A DNA stretch of 64,000 nt from TPA_inf: Saccharomyces (Eukaryota): positions 160,001 to 224,000 of the forward strand of contig BK006935.2 of the NCBI GenBank assembly GCA_000146045.2, read 5' to 3'. How positions within the stretch are numbered: position 1 is the stretch's first letter; each line of letters opens with the position of its first letter. Positions 4,561-64,000 of this stretch are shown piece after piece. The notes under the pieces were generated by a model. The model was given only the letters and a program-made list of their open reading frames with translations, did no database searches and was not told the origin of the DNA. The position numbers and the translations under genes are program-made.

Positions 4561-5866
4561 TAAGATGAAGGTCGTGCTTATTGTTCAATTGAATCGGTTC
4601 AGTAGTTGATTTACTGATGGAATCGTTGTCCGTGCTGGGAGAGTTATTAGATGTGGATACATTGTGAGCCCTGGCTGTTTTCGATTTCGAATTATTTGTT
4701 TTTTGAGGATTCCGAGCTATAACTTTGGGTTTGGTTGTATTCGTATAGCTGCGAGAATCATTCTTCTCATCACTCGGATTTCTCCTGTAATTAGGTTTAC
4801 TGTTTCTCGATCCCTGTTGTTCTTCATAAATAGCATGGATATCTAAGAACAGTTCAGCGACTGTCATATTTAGATGTCGATGACGTGTGTAGCGTAAAAA
4901 TTTATATTCGCCAGATAGACCTCTCATAATTAATTGGCATGCGACCTTGTTATTGATATGAATGCCATTATTGTTCAGTCTGTCGATAATGTTTGTGACT
5001 TTTGTTTCAAATGCATCTGCAGGTGTACTGCCATTATATTGCAAATTTGCCAGGGTCACAATGTCGTTTGCCTCTTGGGTATCAGATTGCATTTTTTCAA
5101 TACTTTTGGAAAGAATTTTCATGATATCCGTATAATCAACGGATAGGATGTCTTTGACCCAGGTAGGTAGGAATTGAGAGGGAGCAAATATTTGAAAAGT
5201 GTTATACAAGAAGGTGAGTTCATCATCAGTGATCTGACGTACGGGTTTTCCGTTTACTGTCGGAATAATACCACCGAGATTCGAGTTTTGTAAAAATTTG
5301 ATGTATGTTTTAACCCAATTTGGAAAGTCATTAGGTGAGGTTAACATTGGTGGTGGTCTGACATATTTTTTAGTGGATGTCATATCAGAGTCCGCTGAGG
5401 ATGAATCAGTAAATGTATTACCTGACTCAGGTGATGGAGTGCTCAGAGGCGTTCCAACTGATGATGGATACTGCGGAAACTGTGATTGTGGCCCAGGTGG
5501 AAAGTACATAGGCGACATTTGATAAGGTGTATACGGAATCATAGATGGGTGTCCGTAAAATGACCAACCAGATGGATTGGCTTGGTTTTGGGTCATCATG
5601 CACTGCTGTGGGTACGGCCCATTCTGTGGTGAATGTGACTGAGCAGTTTGAGGAGAGGCATGATGGGGGTTCTCTGGAACAGCTGATGAAGCAGGTGTTG
5701 TTGTCTGTTGAGAGTTAGCCTTAGTGGAAGCCTTCTCACATTCTTCTGTTTTGGAAGCTGAAACGTCTAACGGATCTTGATTTGTGTGGACTTCCTTAGA
5801 AGTAACCGAAGCACAGGCGCTACCATGAGAAATGGGTGAATGTTGAGATAATTGTTGGGATTCCAT
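4544..5866 (-). CDS. YAR010C: Ty1 TYA (Gag capsid protein), 440 aa; the start codon lies inside the 5' LTR as usual
   Basis: The ORF translation [39 protein letters not shown]…LHLRPETY* is Ty1 Gag, which is 440 aa (Ty2 Gag is 438 aa with a different sequence). The ATG is at 5864-5866 within the LTR. Confidence 0.95.
4558..4564 (-). promoter_or_regulatory. Ty1 +1 programmed ribosomal frameshift heptamer CUU-AGG-C at the TYA/TYB overlap
   Basis: The plus-strand gcctaag is the reverse complement of cttaggc. It sits in the last codons of TYA (…L-R-P-E-T-Y-stop), exactly where Ty1 frameshifting occurs. Confidence 0.8.
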
Positions 5867-6162
5867 TGTTGATAAAGGCTATAATATTAGGTATACAGAA
5901 TATACTAGAAGTTCTCCTCGAGGATATAGGAATCCTCAAAATGGAATCTATATTTCTACATACTAATATTACGATTATTCCTCATTCCGTTTTATATGTT
6001 TATATTCATTGATCCTATTACATTATCAATCCTTGCGTTTCAGCTTCCACTAATTTAGATGACTATTTCTCATCATTTGCGTCATCTTCTAACACCGTAT
6101 ATGATAATATACTAGTAATGTAAATACTAGTTAGTAGATGATAGTTGATTTCTATTCCAACA
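5826..6162 (-). repeat. Ty1 5' LTR (delta), reverse-complement orientation
   Basis: Essentially identical to the 238-574 copy and contains the TYA start codon. Confidence 0.9.
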
Positions 6163-6266
6163 GGTTCTTATTTTCAACAATGTAATTGATGGCCTTAAAT
6201 CTCTACTACATCATAAAGCTTCTAAGCACTTACCATTCCTTCATAAGTCTAGTATTGTAATGAGTT

Positions 6267-6339
6267 GGGCACATGGCGCAGTTGGTAGCGCGCTTCCCTT
6301 GCAAGGAAGAGGTCATCGGTTCGATTCCGGTTGCGTCCA
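6267..6339 (+). tRNA. tA(UGC)A: tRNA-Ala (anticodon UGC), 73 nt, no intron
   Basis: GGGCACATGGCGCAGTTGGTAGCGCGCTTCCCTTGCAAGGAAGAGGTCATCGGTTCGATTCCGGTTGCGTCCA. It has the G3:U70 alanine identity pair, an anticodon loop CTTGCAA, a T-loop GGTTCGATTCC, and an oligo-T terminator (attttttt) just downstream. The Ty1 5' end lies about 100 bp upstream, a typical Ty1 target window. Confidence 0.9.
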
Positions 6340-6741
6340 AATTTTTTTGTTAATCCAACACAATTGAATTCGTGAATAGCTGACTGTCATCAGTAATGTT
6401 CGTGGAAAGTACCTATCCATACTGTTGTATCACGACTAAGTAGTTGTCGACTACTACCTCCTCAACCCCAGTTATATCCCTATGACACATTGGAGGATGC
6501 TGAATAATGACAGAATTTTATTCCTCCTTTTCATTATCATAATCTGAAGCAAAGTTAAAAAATAGAAGAAGTAAGATAAACTTTGTAGATACGATATATA
6601 GTTGTTTGTTTTAGCTATCATATATGCTGAACTGTTACTACCTTATTTTTTCCGAAATGTTTCTAAAACAAATAAATATTCATGAATATGATGCAAGTTC
6701 GTTGGATGAGAAAAAGACCAGGCTTTATTGTAAGGACAATA

Positions 6742-8871
6742 TCATTTACGAATAATTTCATCCAATTGTTTCATCAACACATCCATTCTGTCAAAAACTG
6801 GAGCATAGAGATGTTGAACCAAAGAATTGGGCTTCGAAGCCGGATCGGACATATTGGTATTAGACAATGCCCTTGATCCGGAAAGTGAACTATTTATGCT
6901 TGCTGATGATACCGCCCTTTGTTCATCCATATAAAAATCTTCTTCAGATGATGAGTGTAACGATAAGGTTGATTGCTTTTCTTCTTCGGGGGTACTGTGA
7001 TGTTTTTCTAGCTCCTCTTTAGGTTGTTCTGCGTCAGTTTGATTTGCCATTCCTCCACTAGACCCCAAGCTGGCTTGAATTTGCCCCTCTGTGTTTTCCA
7101 CGTTTGTTGTCTCTTCAATTTTCGATTTTGCATGAATATATTGTGAAATGTCCTTTATTGCTCTAGATGATGGAATACTGCTGCTTTCTTCAACTATTGG
7201 AGTGGATGGTGATTCGTTTGTCCATTCTGACGACGACGGTGAAAACTCGCCAATTGTTGAAAGGGAATTTTGAGAGTCTGATTTTGCCATACCATTCGCA
7301 AATGGCATACGAGGCGCTTCAAATACTTTTTTCAGATCGGTATCGTAATCACTGTCAACCGGTTCAGACTTTTCTTGCCCCACATACCGATTTGCATTAT
7401 AATCATCTTCTCTGTCTTTACTCGATGATGTCTTAGGCTCACTTTCGTTTTTGTTGTCTTGTCTCCGAACTTTTTTCACATTTAGTGGTGTATTCAAAGA
7501 TGTACTAAAGGAGACGTCGCTCACTACATCGCTCGTATCATCATCCTGGAATTTGCCAAAATTTAACTTCGCTTCAGTGTATTCGTCCCGGTGCGTTACT
7601 TTTGTTTCCTTGTCGTTATCAACATCATCGTCGTACGACTGTCCATTGCCTTCACCGCCATCATCGTTACTATCTAACGAGGTATCTTCAATTGCATCAT
7701 CTATAAACCTGTCTGCATAACCGACAACATCATTGAAACTAACAGATTTGTTCCCCTTACCATATCCATTCAGTGCAGGTGTCGGAATTATACTCTCTGC
7801 ATCACTTTGATTCTTGTTACCAGAGCTGATGGAATCATCTTTCGAATCGGAGGAAGCAACCGATTGAGAAGACATGTTTTCATTTTTCCAGCAATTCAAT
7901 CGAGCTAGTCTTTCTGGAAAGGTTTCTAGAATTTCCGCTGGCGCAAACCCGATTTTACCATCAGTGATCCTCTTAACCAGCCACCAATAGGCATCCTGGT
8001 CATTCAAAAGTATACAAGGTTCGTCTTGCCCTAATTGACAATGTGAAGAATCATGGCCATTGAACGCATATAAAGCATATAGTTTATCAGGGTCCAGTTC
8101 TCTTGGCGGCGATAAGGGTTGGTAATCGTCGTTTTCCTCCTCCAAATCGTCTTTCTCCCCTTGAAACCCTGAATCTTGAAATTTTCTGTCAAAGTCATCG
8201 TCATCAGAGTAGTTTTCCTCTTCATCCTCGTCCTCCGAGATGGCGTATTTCAAGCCATCACTAAAATCGTCAACGTCAGGGTTCATTGTATTATTCACTG
8301 AAAAATGCACCTCATCCTTATCGGCGCTATCCACGGAATCAGTTTCGATCTCTTGTAGCCTTCTTTCCAAATTGTCCTCAAATTCAGAATCCGAATAATC
8401 ATATGAGTCGGGCAATTCCGAAGAATTTTCTTTGTAATGTCGCTGATCCCTTTTACTGTTGCTATGCATATGTTTTTCCACGTTCTCCTCCTCTAACTCT
8501 TTGTCATCATCTCTATTTCGCAGAACATCATGGCCCTTTTCTGCCGCATTACTCAGTATATTAAGTTTCGAATTGAAGGGCGAACTCTTATTCGAAGTCG
8601 GAGTCACCACAACACTTCCGCCCATACTCTCCGAATCCTCGTTTCCTAAAGTAAGTTTACTTCCACTTGTAGGCCTATTATTAATGATATCTGAATAATC
8701 CTCTATTAGGGTTGGATCATTCAGTAGCGCGTGCGATTGAAAGGAGTCCATGCCCGACGTCGACGTGATTAGCGAAGGCGCGTAACCATTGTCATGTCTA
8801 GCAGCTATAGAACTAACCTCCTTGACACCACTTGCGGAAGTCTCATCAACATGCTCTTCCTTATTACTCAT
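6742..8871 (-). CDS. BUD14: Bud14, an SH3-domain regulator of Glc7 phosphatase and bud-site selection, 709 aa
   Basis: A 709-aa ORF. It contains an SH3 domain (ALYAFNGHDSSHCQLGQDEPCILLNDQDAYWWLVKRITDGKIGFAPAEILETF) and long acidic/Ser-rich low-complexity regions. Its position between YARCTy1-1/tA(UGC) and ADE1 matches the chromosome I gene order. Confidence 0.85.
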   Translation of the reverse strand: MSNKEEHVDETSASGVKEVSSIAARHDNGYAPSLITSTSGMDSFQSHALLNDPTLIEDYSDIINNRPTSGSKLTLGNEDSESMGGSVVVTPTSNKSSPFNSKLNILSNAAEKGHDVLRNRDDDKELEEENVEKHMHSNSKRDQRHYKENSSELPDSYDYSDSEFEDNLERRLQEIETDSVDSADKDEVHFSVNNTMNPDVDDFSDGLKYAISEDEDEEENYSDDDDFDRKFQDSGFQGEKDDLEEENDDYQPLSPPRELDPDKLYALYAFNGHDSSHCQLGQDEPCILLNDQDAYWWLVKRITDGKIGFAPAEILETFPERLARLNCWKNENMSSQSVASSDSKDDSISSGNKNQSDAESIIPTPALNGYGKGNKSVSFNDVVGYADRFIDDAIEDTSLDSNDDGGEGNGQSYDDDVDNDKETKVTHRDEYTEAKLNFGKFQDDDTSDVVSDVSFSTSLNTPLNVKKVRRQDNKNESEPKTSSSKDREDDYNANRYVGQEKSEPVDSDYDTDLKKVFEAPRMPFANGMAKSDSQNSLSTIGEFSPSSSEWTNESPSTPIVEESSSIPSSRAIKDISQYIHAKSKIEETTNVENTEGQIQASLGSSGGMANQTDAEQPKEELEKHHSTPEEEKQSTLSLHSSSEEDFYMDEQRAVSSASINSSLSGSRALSNTNMSDPASKPNSLVQHLYAPVFDRMDVLMKQLDEIIRK

Positions 8872-58139: not shown

Positions 58140-59385
58140 ATGCCTTATCACTATTTATTTTTGGCACTCTTCACCTACCTGGCCACGTCCAATGTTGTTT
58201 CAGGAAGTACACAAGCATGCCTGCCAGTGGGCCCGAGGAAAAATGGGATGAATGTCAACTTTTATAAATACTCATTACTGGATTCAACAACGTATTCCTA
58301 CCCGCAATATATGACTTCTGGATATGCCTCGAATTGGAATTAGGTTCCGTTGGCGGACAGACGGATTTCTCAATTGACTACGATCTTTCTTGTGTTATCT
58401 CTTCAGGAACTTTTAAATGTGCTCAATCAGATGCTTATGGAAACTGGGGATGCAGAGGTCATAGTGAATGTTCAAAATAGCCAAGAAAGACCTATTGGAG
58501 TACTGATTTACTTGGTTTCTTACTATCCCAAAAAACGCTACTCTAGAAATGACAGGTTACTTTTTACCACCACAAACAAGTTCTTACACGTTCAGGTTTG
58601 CTAAGGTCGATGACTCTGCAATTCTATCAGTCGGTGGTAACGTTGCGTTCGAATGTTGTGCACAAGAACAACCTCCAATTACATCGACGGATTTTACAAT
58701 CAATGGTATTAAGCCATGGCAAGGAAGTTTGCCTGATAACATCGGAGGGACTGTCTACATGTATGCAGGCTACTATTATCCGCTGAAGGTTGTTTACTCC
58801 AATGCCGTTTCCTGGGGCACGCTTCCAATTAGCGTGGAATTGCCTGATGGTACTACTGTTAGTGATGACTTTGAAGGGTACGTTTACTCTTTTGACGATG
58901 ATTTAAGTCAGTCAAATTGTACTATCCCTGATCCTTCAAAACATACTACTAGCATCGTCACAACTACTACCGAACTGTGGACTGGTACTTTTACTTCTAC
59001 ATCTACTGAAATGACCACCGTCACCGGTACTAATGGTCAACCAACTGACGAAACCGTTATTGTTGCCAAAGCTCCAACCACTGCCACCTCATCCAGTTTG
59101 TCATCATCTTCTTCAGAACAAATCACCAGCTCTATCACGTCTTAGCATCCAATTATTACTCCATTCTATCGCAGCAATGGAACTTCTGTAGTTTCTTCCT
59201 CAGTCATGTCTTCCTCGGTCATTTCTTCTTCTGCAACGACCTCCACTTCTATATTCTCTGAATCATCTAAATCATCCGTCATTCAAACCAGTAGTTCCAC
59301 CTCTGGTTCTTCTGAGAGCGAAACAATCTTAGTGATTGCTGGCATGTCATTAGCGACAAGACGCTTATTACCGTAGTAGCCCCCC
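58140..59385 (+). pseudogene. YAR061W/YAR062W: FLO1-like flocculin pseudogene: signal peptide and PA14 domain with internal stop and frameshift, a single repeat unit, and truncation; annotated as the fragments YAR061W (58140-58343) and YAR062W (58549-59145)
   Basis: MPYHYLFLALFTYLATSNVVSGSTQACLPVGPRKNGMNVNFYKYSLLDSTTYSYPQYMTSGYASNWN* parallels the FLO1 N-terminus. At 58344-58548 the sequence is still FLO1-like at DNA level (…[46 protein letters not shown]…) but carries a stop and a frameshift. YAR062W resumes with [30 protein letters not shown]…, runs through one [40 protein letters not shown] unit and ends at a TAG. FLO1-like Ser-rich sequence continues out of frame to about 59385. Confidence 0.85.
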
Positions 59386-60686: not shown

Positions 60687-61048
60687 GGCCAATTGCTTAT
60701 GTGTTGGTCTGCAAATTAGCACCTCGTTCCCTGTTGGCAAACGCGCGCGTACAAGCCTTACAGGGCTTGAGAATGTTCTTCGTAGAAATGCATGCACAAA
60801 AATTCTGATCTAGCACACCATCGGTCTCTGTAGCTTCGGGCTCTATAGCTATGGGTTAGGAGTCCGTGAGTAGTAACAAGAAGAAGTATATAAAAAGCAG
60901 GTAAATCGTACTTCAATATGCTTCATTGTCACTGGATCGTCATATTCACTCTTGTTCTCATAATAGCAGTCCAAGTTTTCATCTTTGCAAGCTTTACTAT
61001 TTCTTTCTTTTTATTGGTAAACTCTCGCCCATTACAAAAAAAAAAGAG

Positions 61049-61660
61049 ATGTTCAATCGTTTTAACAAATTCCAAGCTGCTGTCGCTTTGGCCCTACTCT
61101 CTCGCGGCGCTCTCGGTGACTCTTACACCAATAGCACCTCCTCCGCAGACTTGAGTTCTATCACTTCCGTCTCGTCAGCTAGTGCAAGTGCCACCGCTTC
61201 CGACTCACTTTCTTCCAGTGACGGTACCGTTTATTTGCCATCCACAACAATTAGCGGTGATCTCACAGTTACTGGTAAAGTAATTGCAACCGAGGCCGTG
61301 GAAGTCGCTGCCGGTGGTAAGTTGACTTTACTTGACGGTGAAAAATACGTCTTCTCATCTGATCTAAAAGTTCACGGTGATTTGGTTGTCGAAAAGTCTG
61401 AAGCAAGCTACGAAGGTACCGCGTTCGACGTTTCTGGTGAGACTTTTGAAGTTTCCGGTAACTTCAGTGCTGAAGAAACTGGCGCTGTCTCCGCATCTAT
61501 CTATTCATTCACACCTAGCTCGTTCAAGAGCAGCGGTGACATTTCTTTGAGTTTGTCAAAGGCCAAGAAGGGTGAAGTCACCTTTTCTCCATACTCTAAC
61601 GCTGGTACCTTTTCTTTGTCAAATGCTATTCTCAACGGTGGTTCTGTTTCCGGTTTGTAA
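61049..61660 (+). CDS. YAR066W: N-terminal fragment, 203 aa with a signal peptide, of an HPF1/YIL169C-like GPI-anchored Ser/Thr-rich cell-wall mannoprotein, terminated by a single TAA
   Basis: MFNRFNKFQAAVALALLSRGALGDSYTNSTSSADLSSITSVSS… has a hydrophobic signal sequence and ends at the TAA at 61658-61660. Confidence 0.85.
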   Translation: MFNRFNKFQAAVALALLSRGALGDSYTNSTSSADLSSITSVSSASASATASDSLSSSDGTVYLPSTTISGDLTVTGKVIATEAVEVAAGGKLTLLDGEKYVFSSDLKVHGDLVVEKSEASYEGTAFDVSGETFEVSGNFSAEETGAVSASIYSFTPSSFKSSGDISLSLSKAKKGEVTFSPYSNAGTFSLSNAILNGGSVSGL

Positions 61661-62944
61661 CGTAGAGACGACGATGAAGGCTCTGTAAATAACGGTGAAA
61701 TCAACCTAGACAATGGAAGTACCTATGTTATCGTTGAACCAGTTTCTGGAAACGGTACAATCAACATCGTCTCTGGTAACCTATACTTGCACTACCCTGA
61801 CACCTTTACTGGCCAAACTGTTGTATTCAAGGGTGAAGGTGTTCTTGCCGTTGACCCAACCGAAACCAACGCCACTCCTATTCCTGTTGTTGGCTACACC
61901 GGTAAGAACCAAATTGCCATTACCGCCGACATCACTGCTCTTTCTTACGACGGTACTACTGGTGTCTTAACTGCAACCCAAGGTAACAGACAATTCTCTT
62001 TTGAAATTGGTACTGGATTCTCTAGTTCTGGCTTCAGTGTCTCCGAAGGAATCTTCGCAGGCGCCTACTCATATTACCTAAACTATGACGGTGTCATCGC
62101 TACAAGCGCCGCATCCACATCCGCATCCACTACCTCTGGTGTTGTCTCTACTGCCACTGGTTCAGTCACTTTATCCTCTAACGCTTCTACCACCGTCTCT
62201 TCTACGATCTCTTCTAGCGCCCCAGACTCAATAATTCCTTCATCTAGCGCCTCTATCTCTGGTGTCTCAAACTCCACTACAGCATCTGGTTCAATCGCTT
62301 CTACTGCTTCCACCGCTTCCACTACTTCTACTGCATCCGCTGCATCCGCCACCAGCTTCACCTCAGGTTCCGCTTCTGTCTACACTACTACATTAACTTA
62401 CTTGAATGCCACAAGTACAGTCGTGGTTTCCTGTTCAGAAACAACCGACGCTAGCGGTAACATTTACACCATTACCACAACTGTCCCATGCTCATCTACC
62501 ACTGCCACCATCACATCTTGTGACGAAAACGGATGCCATGTTCCAGCACCAACTGCTACCGACGCAACTGCAACCGTTTCCTCCAAGTCATACACCACTG
62601 TTACTGTTACTCACTGTGACAACAATGGCTGTAACACCAAGACTGTCACTTCTGAATGTTCTAAAGAAACTGCAGCAACCACCATTTCTCCAAAATCATA
62701 CACTACTGTTACCGTTACTCACTGTGACGACAACGGCTGTAACACCAAGACTGTCACTTCCGAGGCTTCCAAACAAACATCATTGGCCACTAGCACAGTC
62801 ACCAAGTCTGCTGCTCCAACTTCTCATACTGCTGCTTCCAGCACCTTCACTGGTATTGTCGTTCAATCCGAAGGTATGGCTGCTGGTTTGAGAACCAATG
62901 CTTTAAGTACTTTGGCAGGTATTTTCATCCTTGCTTTTTTTTAA
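61661..62944 (+). pseudogene. In-frame continuation of the YAR066W gene: about 428 further codons of Ser/Thr-rich, Cys-repeat mannoprotein ending in a GPI-anchor signal, separated from YAR066W only by the single stop codon. The annotated YAR068W (62406-62891, 161 aa) lies in a different frame inside it
   Basis: Both 61049 and 61787 are at position 2 mod 3, so they share a frame. The codons at 61661-61786 (cgt aga gac gac gat gaa ggc tct gta aat aac ggt gaa atc aac cta gac aat gga agt acc tat gtt atc gtt gaa cca gtt tct gga aac ggt aca atc aac atc gtc tct ggt aac cta tac ttg) contain no stop. The downstream frame has three TVTHCD(N/D)[11 protein letters not shown] repeats, a Ser/Thr-rich body and a C-terminal hydrophobic tail (ALSTLAGIFILAFF*), all typical of GPI cell-wall proteins. 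Confidence 0.75.
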
Positions 62945-63125
62945 AATGAGTGCGTAACCGTACTTTCCTAAAAATAACTAAGTAGAAAGTATTTTAATAT
63001 ATAAACGTCAGTGTAAACATTCAAGTGATTTTAACTTTACGCGGTTGAAGAATGCTGTGTTCGAACTATAAAGCGTCAGAAAAGATGGTTTAGCGAAGGC
63101 ACCATTATGAAGATAGACACATTCT

Positions 63126-63127
<2 letters not shown>

Positions 63128-63163
<36 letters not shown>

Positions 63164-63173
63164 CATTTACTTT
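63128..63173. repeat. Uninterrupted poly(dT) homopolymer of 46 nt
   Basis: The sequence is attcttc + t(46) + catttac, by direct count. Confidence 0.95.
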
Positions 63174-64000
63174 TATTTCGCGCGGTCGGTAAATTTTTCG
63201 TGGGTTTCTTTGAATCTATTAGCCGACATAAGAATAATGCATAAATAATATTTTTAATGTCTTCCTATGCCCAAAAGAAGAAGTCTTGAAGTTGCCGCAC
63301 ATGGAAATCACATGACCATGGCTTGGCCCTTCGTTTTAAATGCAACATGCAATATGGAATGTGTCATGAATACTATCAGCAGGAACAGAAAGCGTCGTTT
63401 TGTTTCTGCAAATGCTGTAGTTTTGGGCCGAAAATAGATGTAGTAGAATATATAGTGAAACGTGATGTACAAAAGAAAAAGGTAGTTTAAAAAAAATTAG
63501 ATAACTTGGATTTTTACCCTGAATATTGCATGTGATTCGTAAAGAACTGAGTTACCTCAAACGGACCTCCCTTTTCATTTCGTATTCCGCGAATCATGAA
63601 GTCATGCAATTACCTCTGAAGAGCTGACTGTCCCAAAAGAAGCTATCGAATCTGTCCTTGATTTATTTAAGCCTTGCGTTTCGAGAAAGTGAAAACCAAT
63701 TGAATACAAAATAAAAAAAAAGAAGAAAGAAATAGCAGGTCTAAGATATATAAGAAAGTTAATATCATTTTTGAACATTTTATTTTAGACGCCTTCAGCC
63801 GCGCGACGCCCGGAGTAATCATATGCCCATGACTTTACCAAAAGGCAACAGGGAGGAACATGCATTAATGTGAAGCATCACTGCTGCAATTCTCGGTGTT
63901 GCTAATAATTCATGGATCGAGAAAGAGACATAACATTTAGGCCAATTTTTTGAATAAATATGAACTCAGCTAAGACTCGACAATACAATTTTCTTATACT

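Follow-up and report, generated by a model that had tools for sequence, protein, structure and literature searches.

A single C-to-T nonsense codon probably accounts for the truncated HPF1-type gene YAR066W in the Saccharomyces cerevisiae S288C reference

Why does a short annotated gene of the yeast reference strain stop inside a frame that continues for more than 400 further codons? The locus lies in a 64,000-nucleotide stretch of contig BK006935.2 (assembly GCA_000146045.2, positions 160,001 to 224,000 of the forward strand), here called the window, and positions are given in window coordinates unless another locus is named. Two genes are annotated at this point, YAR066W and YAR068W. The initial annotation of the window proposed that YAR066W is the first part of an HPF1-like gene of about 630 codons, interrupted by exactly one in-frame TAA. 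We consider it likely, with a probability of roughly 0.88, that the locus is a single C-to-T nonsense allele of an HPF1/CSS1-type gene, which is recent, polymorphic in S. cerevisiae, and followed by a relic of the remaining coding sequence.

Translation of 61049-62944 on the + strand gives one frame of 632 codons, in which stops occur at codon 204 and codon 632 alone, the terminal stop being the TAA at 62942-62944. The parts of this frame are as follows.

61049-61660, + strand: annotated YAR066W, a 203-codon N-terminal fragment with its premature stop (exact match to NP_009430.1)
61658-61660, + strand: nonsense codon TAA, derived from CAA (Gln204 to stop), from allele comparison
61661-62941, + strand: disabled C-terminal part of the gene, two thirds of its length, with 427 sense codons in frame, from translation

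The 203 residues encoded by 61049-61657 agree exactly with NP_009430.1, YAR066W of S. cerevisiae S288C (UniProt YA066_YEAST). Together with the equally exact match of the YAR068W product (below), this places the window on the right subtelomeric arm of S288C chromosome I. From base composition, the chance of 427 stop-free codons beyond codon 204 is 1.5e-8, and 0 of 20,000 shuffles left the stretch after the TAA free of stops. Translation found codon 204 to be the only internal stop, and no other disruption of the frame between 61661 and 62944, which confirms the single TAA claimed at the outset.

Both sides of the stop belong to one protein family. The Pfam gathering score was used as the threshold for membership of PF11765 (Hyphal_reg_CWP, 328 profile positions; cutoff 28 bits). 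YAR066W matches profile positions 11-145 with 28.6 bits, the frame downstream of the stop matches positions 162-307 with 49.3 bits, and an intact allele of 634 residues (P0007) matches positions 11-307 in one continuous match of 80.1 bits. Because the halves take complementary ranges of a profile that is matched continuously in the intact allele, the TAA bisects a single domain:

61244-62092, + strand: Hyphal_reg_CWP (PF11765) domain, residues about 66-348, with a beta-helix and alpha-crystallin fold, from Pfam and the structure model

Aligned with the intact allele, an Hpf1p has 71% identity and a CSS1-like protein 78%. The identity extends over domain, stalk repeats and C-terminus, and each of the two paralogs reads SGLQRR where the stop falls. 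The proposed membership of the HPF1 family is borne out by these identities and by the split domain, and 61049-62944 is one HPF1/CSS1-family gene (Hyphal_reg_CWP, IPR021031). The members of this family are secreted and heavily glycosylated mannoproteins, related to the Awp1-type glycosylphosphatidylinositol (GPI) wall proteins.

What the stop removes can be estimated from a structure model, which was made of the intact allele P0007 and not of the truncated product. In the AlphaFold model residues 52-350 are predicted to be all-beta, with predicted local distance difference test (pLDDT) values of 70-92, and the remainder to be disordered. The best Foldseek matches of this model in the PDB are the A-domains of 7O9P (Awp3b), 7O9Q (Awp1) and 7O9O, with E values of 2e-9 to 1e-7 over about 330 alignment columns, target-normalised template modelling (TM) scores of 0.6-0.66 and 15-23% sequence identity. 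The Awp1 and Awp3b A-domains are nine-turn right-handed beta-helices with an alpha-crystallin cap, and Hpf1 and Css1 have been assigned to the same family; the helix of Awp1 occupies about 223 residues and is followed by the cap (PMC8746771). By the Awp1 boundaries and the seven terminal strands of the model, about two thirds of the beta-helix would precede residue 204, so that the 203-residue product would end before the last turns of the helix and would have neither the cap nor the Ser/Thr stalk nor the GPI signal. Residues 197-205 are the sole low-confidence stretch within the modelled domain. All 24 homologs compared share L203 and R205, and at Q204 and R206 conservation is 90% or more. 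The conserved motif L-Q-R-R-D, in which the stop falls, is similar to a dibasic cleavage site for Kex2 (residues 197-209, window 61637-61675).

The ancestral state of codon 204 can be read from other alleles. Ten nonsense loci (L001-L010) were retrieved by exact match to the 203-residue protein. Codon 204 is TAA in the window and in nine of them (L001-L007, L009, L010), and TGA in the tenth (L008, 4610-4612; GCA_000977355.3, on a chromosome VIII-sized contig), a stop-to-stop change inside the clade. The codon is CAA in 15 intact S. cerevisiae alleles (L011, L012, L014, L016-L027) and in S. paradoxus (L013), and the S. uvarum protein has Gln at the corresponding position, within SGLQRR. Since CAA is found in the intact alleles and in S. 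paradoxus, and Gln in the paralogs, the TAA is a derived C-to-T transition that turned Gln204 into a stop.

Full-length forms of the protein are numerous. A protein search with the downstream frame returned many, the S. cerevisiae alleles having 615-638 residues; examples are K7_03371p of Kyokai 7 (631 residues), SPAR_A00820 of S. paradoxus (638 residues, on a chromosome I-sized contig) and a S. uvarum protein of 633 residues. A partial "YAR066W-like" protein of Lalvin QA23 reads straight across the site of the stop. The guess that the gene might simply be intact in some strains is therefore correct, and the comparison of 61658-61660 across strains finds the codon polymorphic, with the stop absent outside one clade. 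The stop is an ordinary strain-specific loss-of-function allele, segregating in S. cerevisiae.

The same comparison disposes of an error in sequencing or assembly of the reference, by which the gene would be intact in S288C. Nothing speaks for this explanation, and it is refuted by the presence of TAA in nine independently assembled loci and TGA in another; the exact 203-residue sequence was found on 407 contigs (719 blocks of the collection), and we give such an error a negligible chance. Other 203-residue variants with amino acid changes also exist.

Nonsense alleles occur on chromosome I-sized and chromosome VIII-sized contigs alike. A 19.6-kb duplication shared by chromosomes I and VIII pairs YAR066W with YHR214W, and YAR068W with YHR214W-A (PMC2728529), and the presence of the nonsense haplotype on both contig classes fits this duplication. 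One locus, L002, was considered as a chimeric allele with a different GPI tail and was rejected, as a gap of undetermined bases after residue 381 is followed by a flocculin C-terminus. Its positions 5143-7466 contain the run of N, the flocculin C-terminus and a second YAR066W upstream region, which is a scaffold gap in repeated subtelomeric sequence, and L002 was left out of the downstream analyses. Several gene models in nonsense strains (P0002-P0005, P0009, P0011, P0014, P0039) omit 21-46 residues around codon 204, and that of P0039 traverses part of the YAR068W frame. The skipped residues look like invented introns that bridge the stop, that is, annotation artefacts.

The age of the mutation can be judged from the changes around it. 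Against S. paradoxus, the ratio of nonsynonymous to synonymous substitution rates (dN/dS) is 0.04 upstream of the stop, 0.06 in the rest of the domain, and 0.18 in the stalk and C-terminus; the low values downstream mean that the frame was constrained coding sequence until recently. Nonsense alleles differ pairwise by at most about 11 of 1896 nt, and by at most 7 from the allele in the window, and the nearest sampled intact allele is 18 nt away. The stem of the clade carries the nonsense change with six derived synonymous and zero derived nonsynonymous changes, which means that constraint held until about the time of the mutation. Downstream of the stop, the clade has 7 nonsynonymous and 3 synonymous changes, one change that abolishes the terminal stop, and two in-frame indels in the repeats. 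From the sites alone, neutrality would give about 2.8 nonsynonymous (N) for each synonymous (S) change. The count for intact alleles is 19 N to 31 S, which differs from the clade with a Fisher p = 0.085, or 0.048 if the stop loss is counted, and divergence from S. paradoxus shows 39 N to 89 S (p = 0.007 against the clade). The pattern within the clade fits relaxed constraint after the mutation, in a sample of only 11 changes. A further test, of 0 N to 4 S upstream against 8 N to 3 S downstream (p = 0.026), was withdrawn, as retrieval by exact identity of the 203 residues forces the upstream N count to zero. We propose that the 427 codons past the stop are an untranslated relic, which has stayed intact because little time has passed since the mutation.

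Several observations weigh against this account. Relaxed constraint is read from those 11 changes, with a borderline comparison to the intact alleles, and four of the clade's nonsynonymous changes lie in one allele (L004) and could be one conversion event. The downstream frame is open in all nine other informative nonsense alleles, and both indels are multiples of three; such open frames carry little weight, being expected under neutrality at diversity this low. The 203-residue allele is common, which drift of a null allele does not require. The literature search also turned up no expression, nonsense-mediated mRNA decay (NMD) or proteomic data for the locus.

Under the nonsense-allele account, translation in the S288C haplotype would begin at the normal ATG and stop after 203 residues, leaving a product with the signal peptide and the beta-helix up to about two thirds of its length. 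The features that bear on its fate are these.

61049-61117, + strand: signal peptide of about 23 residues, MFNRFNKFQAAVALALLSRGALG, from its hydrophobic core
62099-62866, + strand: Ser/Thr/Ala-rich stalk, residues 351-606, from composition
62507-62773, + strand: C-terminal repeats with Cys, two of them exact TVTHCD(N/D) copies and the other diverged, from a pattern search of the translation
62867-62944, + strand: GPI-attachment-type signal and true stop, with the spacer SEG|MAAGLRTN and the hydrophobic ALSTLAGIFILAFF, from hydropathy and identity to a CSS1/HZY1-like protein

The N-terminal secretion signal is real: a signal-trap screen yielded the first 105 residues of YAR066W as a fusion partner for secretion, 23 of them being the putative signal (PMC4508530), and this leader has been reused (PMC13185157). 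Residues 351-631 consist of 44% Ser and Thr, or 58% with Ala included, and the stalk region has in-frame length polymorphisms between alleles. Three repeats of the form TVTHCD(N/D) had been noted in the initial annotation; the repeats are present, but only those at residues 519 and 555 are exact copies, and the one at 487 is diverged. At the same three positions CD(N/D/E)NGC repeats are found, which are common to HPF1 and CSS1-like proteins, and a 36-residue C-terminal repeat has been described in YIL169C/HZY1 (10.1101/2023.07.10.548400).

The C-terminal tail has the layout of a GPI-attachment signal, with small residues S607-E-G609, a polar spacer and a hydrophobic tail of 14 residues. The mean Kyte-Doolittle hydropathy of the last 14 residues is 2.31 for the long frame against 0.81 for the end of the 203-residue frame. 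The GPI signal that had been claimed agrees with this layout and is a putative one, and the tail is that of a CSS1/HZY1-like allele. Over its last 97 residues the intact allele has 100% identity to this CSS1/HZY1-like protein (P0043), against 78% over the rest, which suggests recent gene conversion among family members. P0043 sits on a chromosome IX-sized contig, and the identical stretch corresponds to window 62660-62941 (residues 538-631). For non-S288C alleles of HZY1 a GPI anchor is predicted, and according to the same preprint the S288C allele of YIL169C (CSS1/HZY1) has lost its predicted GPI signal (10.1101/2023.07.10.548400). As the 203-residue product would be without a GPI signal, it could not be wall-anchored.

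Two elements outside the frame bear on the transcript.

60887-60896, + strand: TATATAAAAA, a TATA-like element and candidate core promoter, 162 nt upstream of the ATG, read from the sequence
62998-63003, + strand: TATATA, a candidate 3'-end efficiency element 54 nt past the true stop, from a motif scan

TATATA occurs only twice in 60800-63200, one occurrence being the upstream element (60887-60896). Neither TATATA nor TAYRTA was found between 61661 and 62944, and the match at 62998-63003 is the only one downstream of the promoter. Since the only candidate 3'-end element lies past the true stop, the transcript probably spans the whole 1.9-kb frame. An uninterrupted run of about 36 T lies at 63128-63163, roughly 185 nt past the true stop. 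The output of a sigma-70 promoter and intrinsic-terminator scan was set aside as not applicable to yeast. A stop between the in-frame open reading frames (ORFs) YIL168W and YIL167W triggers NMD (PMC1657058), and by analogy a transcript with TAA at codon 204 and about 1.3 kb of 3' sequence is expected to be an NMD target. The truncated product would presumably be non-functional.

Could the relic still be translated? There is no in-frame Met between codons 1 and 610 of the long frame, and the relic could therefore be translated only through readthrough or non-AUG reinitiation. The initial annotation had suggested low-level readthrough or a [PSI+]-dependent full-length product. In its strongest form, this idea would have a leaky stop, read through more often in [PSI+] cells, giving a small and regulated amount of full-length GPI mannoprotein, with the frame kept open by selection. 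The stop stands in the context TTG TAA CGT AGA, and a C as the base after the stop makes a weaker termination context in yeast. A yeast readthrough motif, stop-CAR-YYA, was reportedly described by Namy and colleagues in 2001, and TAA CGT AGA agrees with it at 2 of 6 positions. No stable RNA structure beyond that of shuffled sequences was found after the stop (z = -0.20 for 61658-61760).

The single stop, and a downstream frame open in the window and in nine informative alleles, are what a leaky stop would predict, and readthrough has been proposed for disabled ORFs in general (Harrison 2002; Namy 2003; as cited in PMC1657058). When UAA is read through in yeast, Gln is inserted in 42-44% of cases (PMC4150775), which would recreate the ancestral protein; this is attractive, but is not evidence for readthrough. 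The stop itself is not conserved across species, being restricted to one S. cerevisiae clade and absent from many strains, while the orthologs read Gln. Of the nonsense alleles, one no longer has the terminal stop and another reads TGA instead of TAA. The downstream changes in the clade, 7-8 N to 3 S, are near the neutral ratio, and the locus is unmentioned in the searched supplements of one NMD study and two readthrough studies. Nothing suggests programmed readthrough; basal or [PSI+]-enhanced readthrough is possible, though unsupported. The suggestion therefore survives as a possibility, while sequence context, RNA structure, lack of stop conservation and the downstream N:S counts argue against a selected role, and we regard conditional readthrough maintained by selection as very unlikely.

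A different question is whether the truncation was itself favoured. By this explanation the secreted, anchor-less fragment of 203 residues was selected, perhaps because it mimics a proteolytic fragment released at the Kex2-like L-Q-R-R loop. The exact protein is found on 407 contigs of both chromosome I and chromosome VIII size, the change from TAA to TGA in L008 retains a stop, the stop falls in the low-confidence loop (residues 197-205) with L-Q-R-R conserved in the 24 homologs, and the N-terminal 105 residues drive efficient secretion (PMC4508530). However, the fragment would be without the last helix turns and the capping domain, the long 3' region would predict NMD, and the neighbouring genes on the haplotype are plainly decayed. 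A single TGA variant is also compatible with chance, and Kex2 cleavage in this family is conjecture, which is not addressed in the literature searched. Adaptive truncation is therefore thought unlikely. The two ideas can be combined in a two-state switch, in which the secreted fragment, possibly like a Kex2 fragment, is constitutive, and [PSI+] or otherwise impaired termination adds wall-anchored full-length protein, about 40% of it with Gln, the haplotype having spread to both copies because it is useful. We regard such a switch as very unlikely.

The decay of the surroundings is seen on both sides of the gene. At 58549-59145, upstream, a 198-residue ORF with PA14, GLEYA and Flocculin matches is the N-terminal fragment of a flocculin, and in loci with an intact HPF1-like allele its place is taken by a long flocculin gene (919-1675 residues). 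In S. paradoxus (L013:6870-9832) a class-III aminotransferase gene (437 residues) and a PhyH-family gene (346 residues) lie just downstream of the intact gene, and such genes occur at similar positions in S. cerevisiae L014, L020, L022 and L025-L027. No remnants of either were found in window 62945-64000, and S288C-type loci have only PhyH fragments, which lie beyond the end of the window. The S288C-type haplotype has thus decayed around the gene too.

What, then, is YAR068W, which is annotated within the relic?

62406-62891, + strand: annotated YAR068W, a 161-codon ORF in the +1 frame of the long frame, most likely spurious, from exact match and comparisons

The 161-residue product of 62406-62888 is an exact match to S288C YAR068W. 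If it were a real and separately expressed gene overlapping the relic, its frame might be expected to persist, and it is indeed uninterrupted in S. paradoxus; in S. uvarum, however, it contains two stops, and YAR068W is not alignable with that species. Identity with S. paradoxus is 82.6% for YAR068W against 94.5% for the overlapping main frame. No Pfam match was found for it. When the main frame was shuffled among synonymous codons, 13% of shuffles had an ORF starting with ATG of at least 161 codons in the +1 frame, and 34% had a stop-free run of that length. Regulation of YAR068W/YHR214W-A has been reported in array and chromatin immunoprecipitation (ChIP) papers, as petite induction, in a Zap1 list and as a Yrr1 peak, and one RNA-seq study lists both YAR066W and YAR068W among up-regulated genes. 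Hybridisation and ChIP signals cannot separate YAR068W from the 3' part of an HPF1-like transcript. YAR068W is most likely a compositional by-product of Ser/Thr-rich coding sequence, in agreement with the initial view that it is an artefact, and a genuine gene is highly improbable.

These findings matter mainly for annotation and for the interpretation of reference-strain data, and do not mark the locus as a special decoding device. The label of YAR066W and YHR214W as "putative GPI proteins" is doubtful, as the 203-residue product is without a convincing GPI signal and the putative one lies 427 codons past the stop. Expression or ChIP results for YAR068W/YHR214W-A probably report the 3' part of the HPF1-like transcript. 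The family in S288C has been counted as Hpf1 and Css1 only, with no adhesion function known for the Saccharomyces members (PMC8746771); in fact the family has four loci in S288C, and at two of these the gene is disabled. Given also the reported loss of the predicted GPI signal in CSS1, S288C is a poor model for this wall protein family, which affects haze in wine and beer. Intron-bridged false protein models made by automated pipelines are now in public databases. The single UAA with a known ancestral Gln also offers a clean natural test case for readthrough, NMD and the effects of [PSI+].

The closest known systems are HPF1 (YOL155C), CSS1/HZY1 (YIL169C) and Awa1, which have in common PF11765, 71-78% identity and the SGLQRR motif. 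Compared with the HPF1 and CSS1-like proteins this gene is shorter and is without the long N-terminal Ser-rich repeats before the domain, their domains starting at residues 200-227; and unlike HPF1 and CSS1 it is disabled in S288C by a nonsense codon, while intact in other strains. In Awp1 and Awp3b of Candida glabrata and the Hyr1/Iff proteins of C. albicans a signal peptide is followed by an A-domain, a Ser/Thr-rich B-region and a GPI signal, the same order of parts as predicted here. The predicted fold matches the whole A-domain of Awp1 and Awp3b, yet at 15-23% sequence identity.

Genes with programmed readthrough are alike in having an in-frame continuation, and unlike in stop context, RNA structure and conservation of the stop. 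The better parallel is with disabled ORFs, since one homolog spans both in-frame pieces, which are separated by the stop alone. The locus is a disabled ORF comparable to those of Harrison et al. 2002 and Namy et al. 2003 (as cited in PMC1657058), and its intact orthologs are already in public databases. The disabled YAR066W gene is not described in the searched papers that mention YAR066W, a search that older lists of disabled ORFs fall outside. S288C has comparable cases in YIL168W/YIL167W (SDL1) and YIL164C/YIL165C. NMD sensitivity has been shown for YIL168W/YIL167W, and would apply here by analogy. In contrast to those pairs, the annotation here has the correct frame for the upstream piece only, and the wrong-frame label YAR068W hides the relationship between the two halves of one HPF1-type gene.

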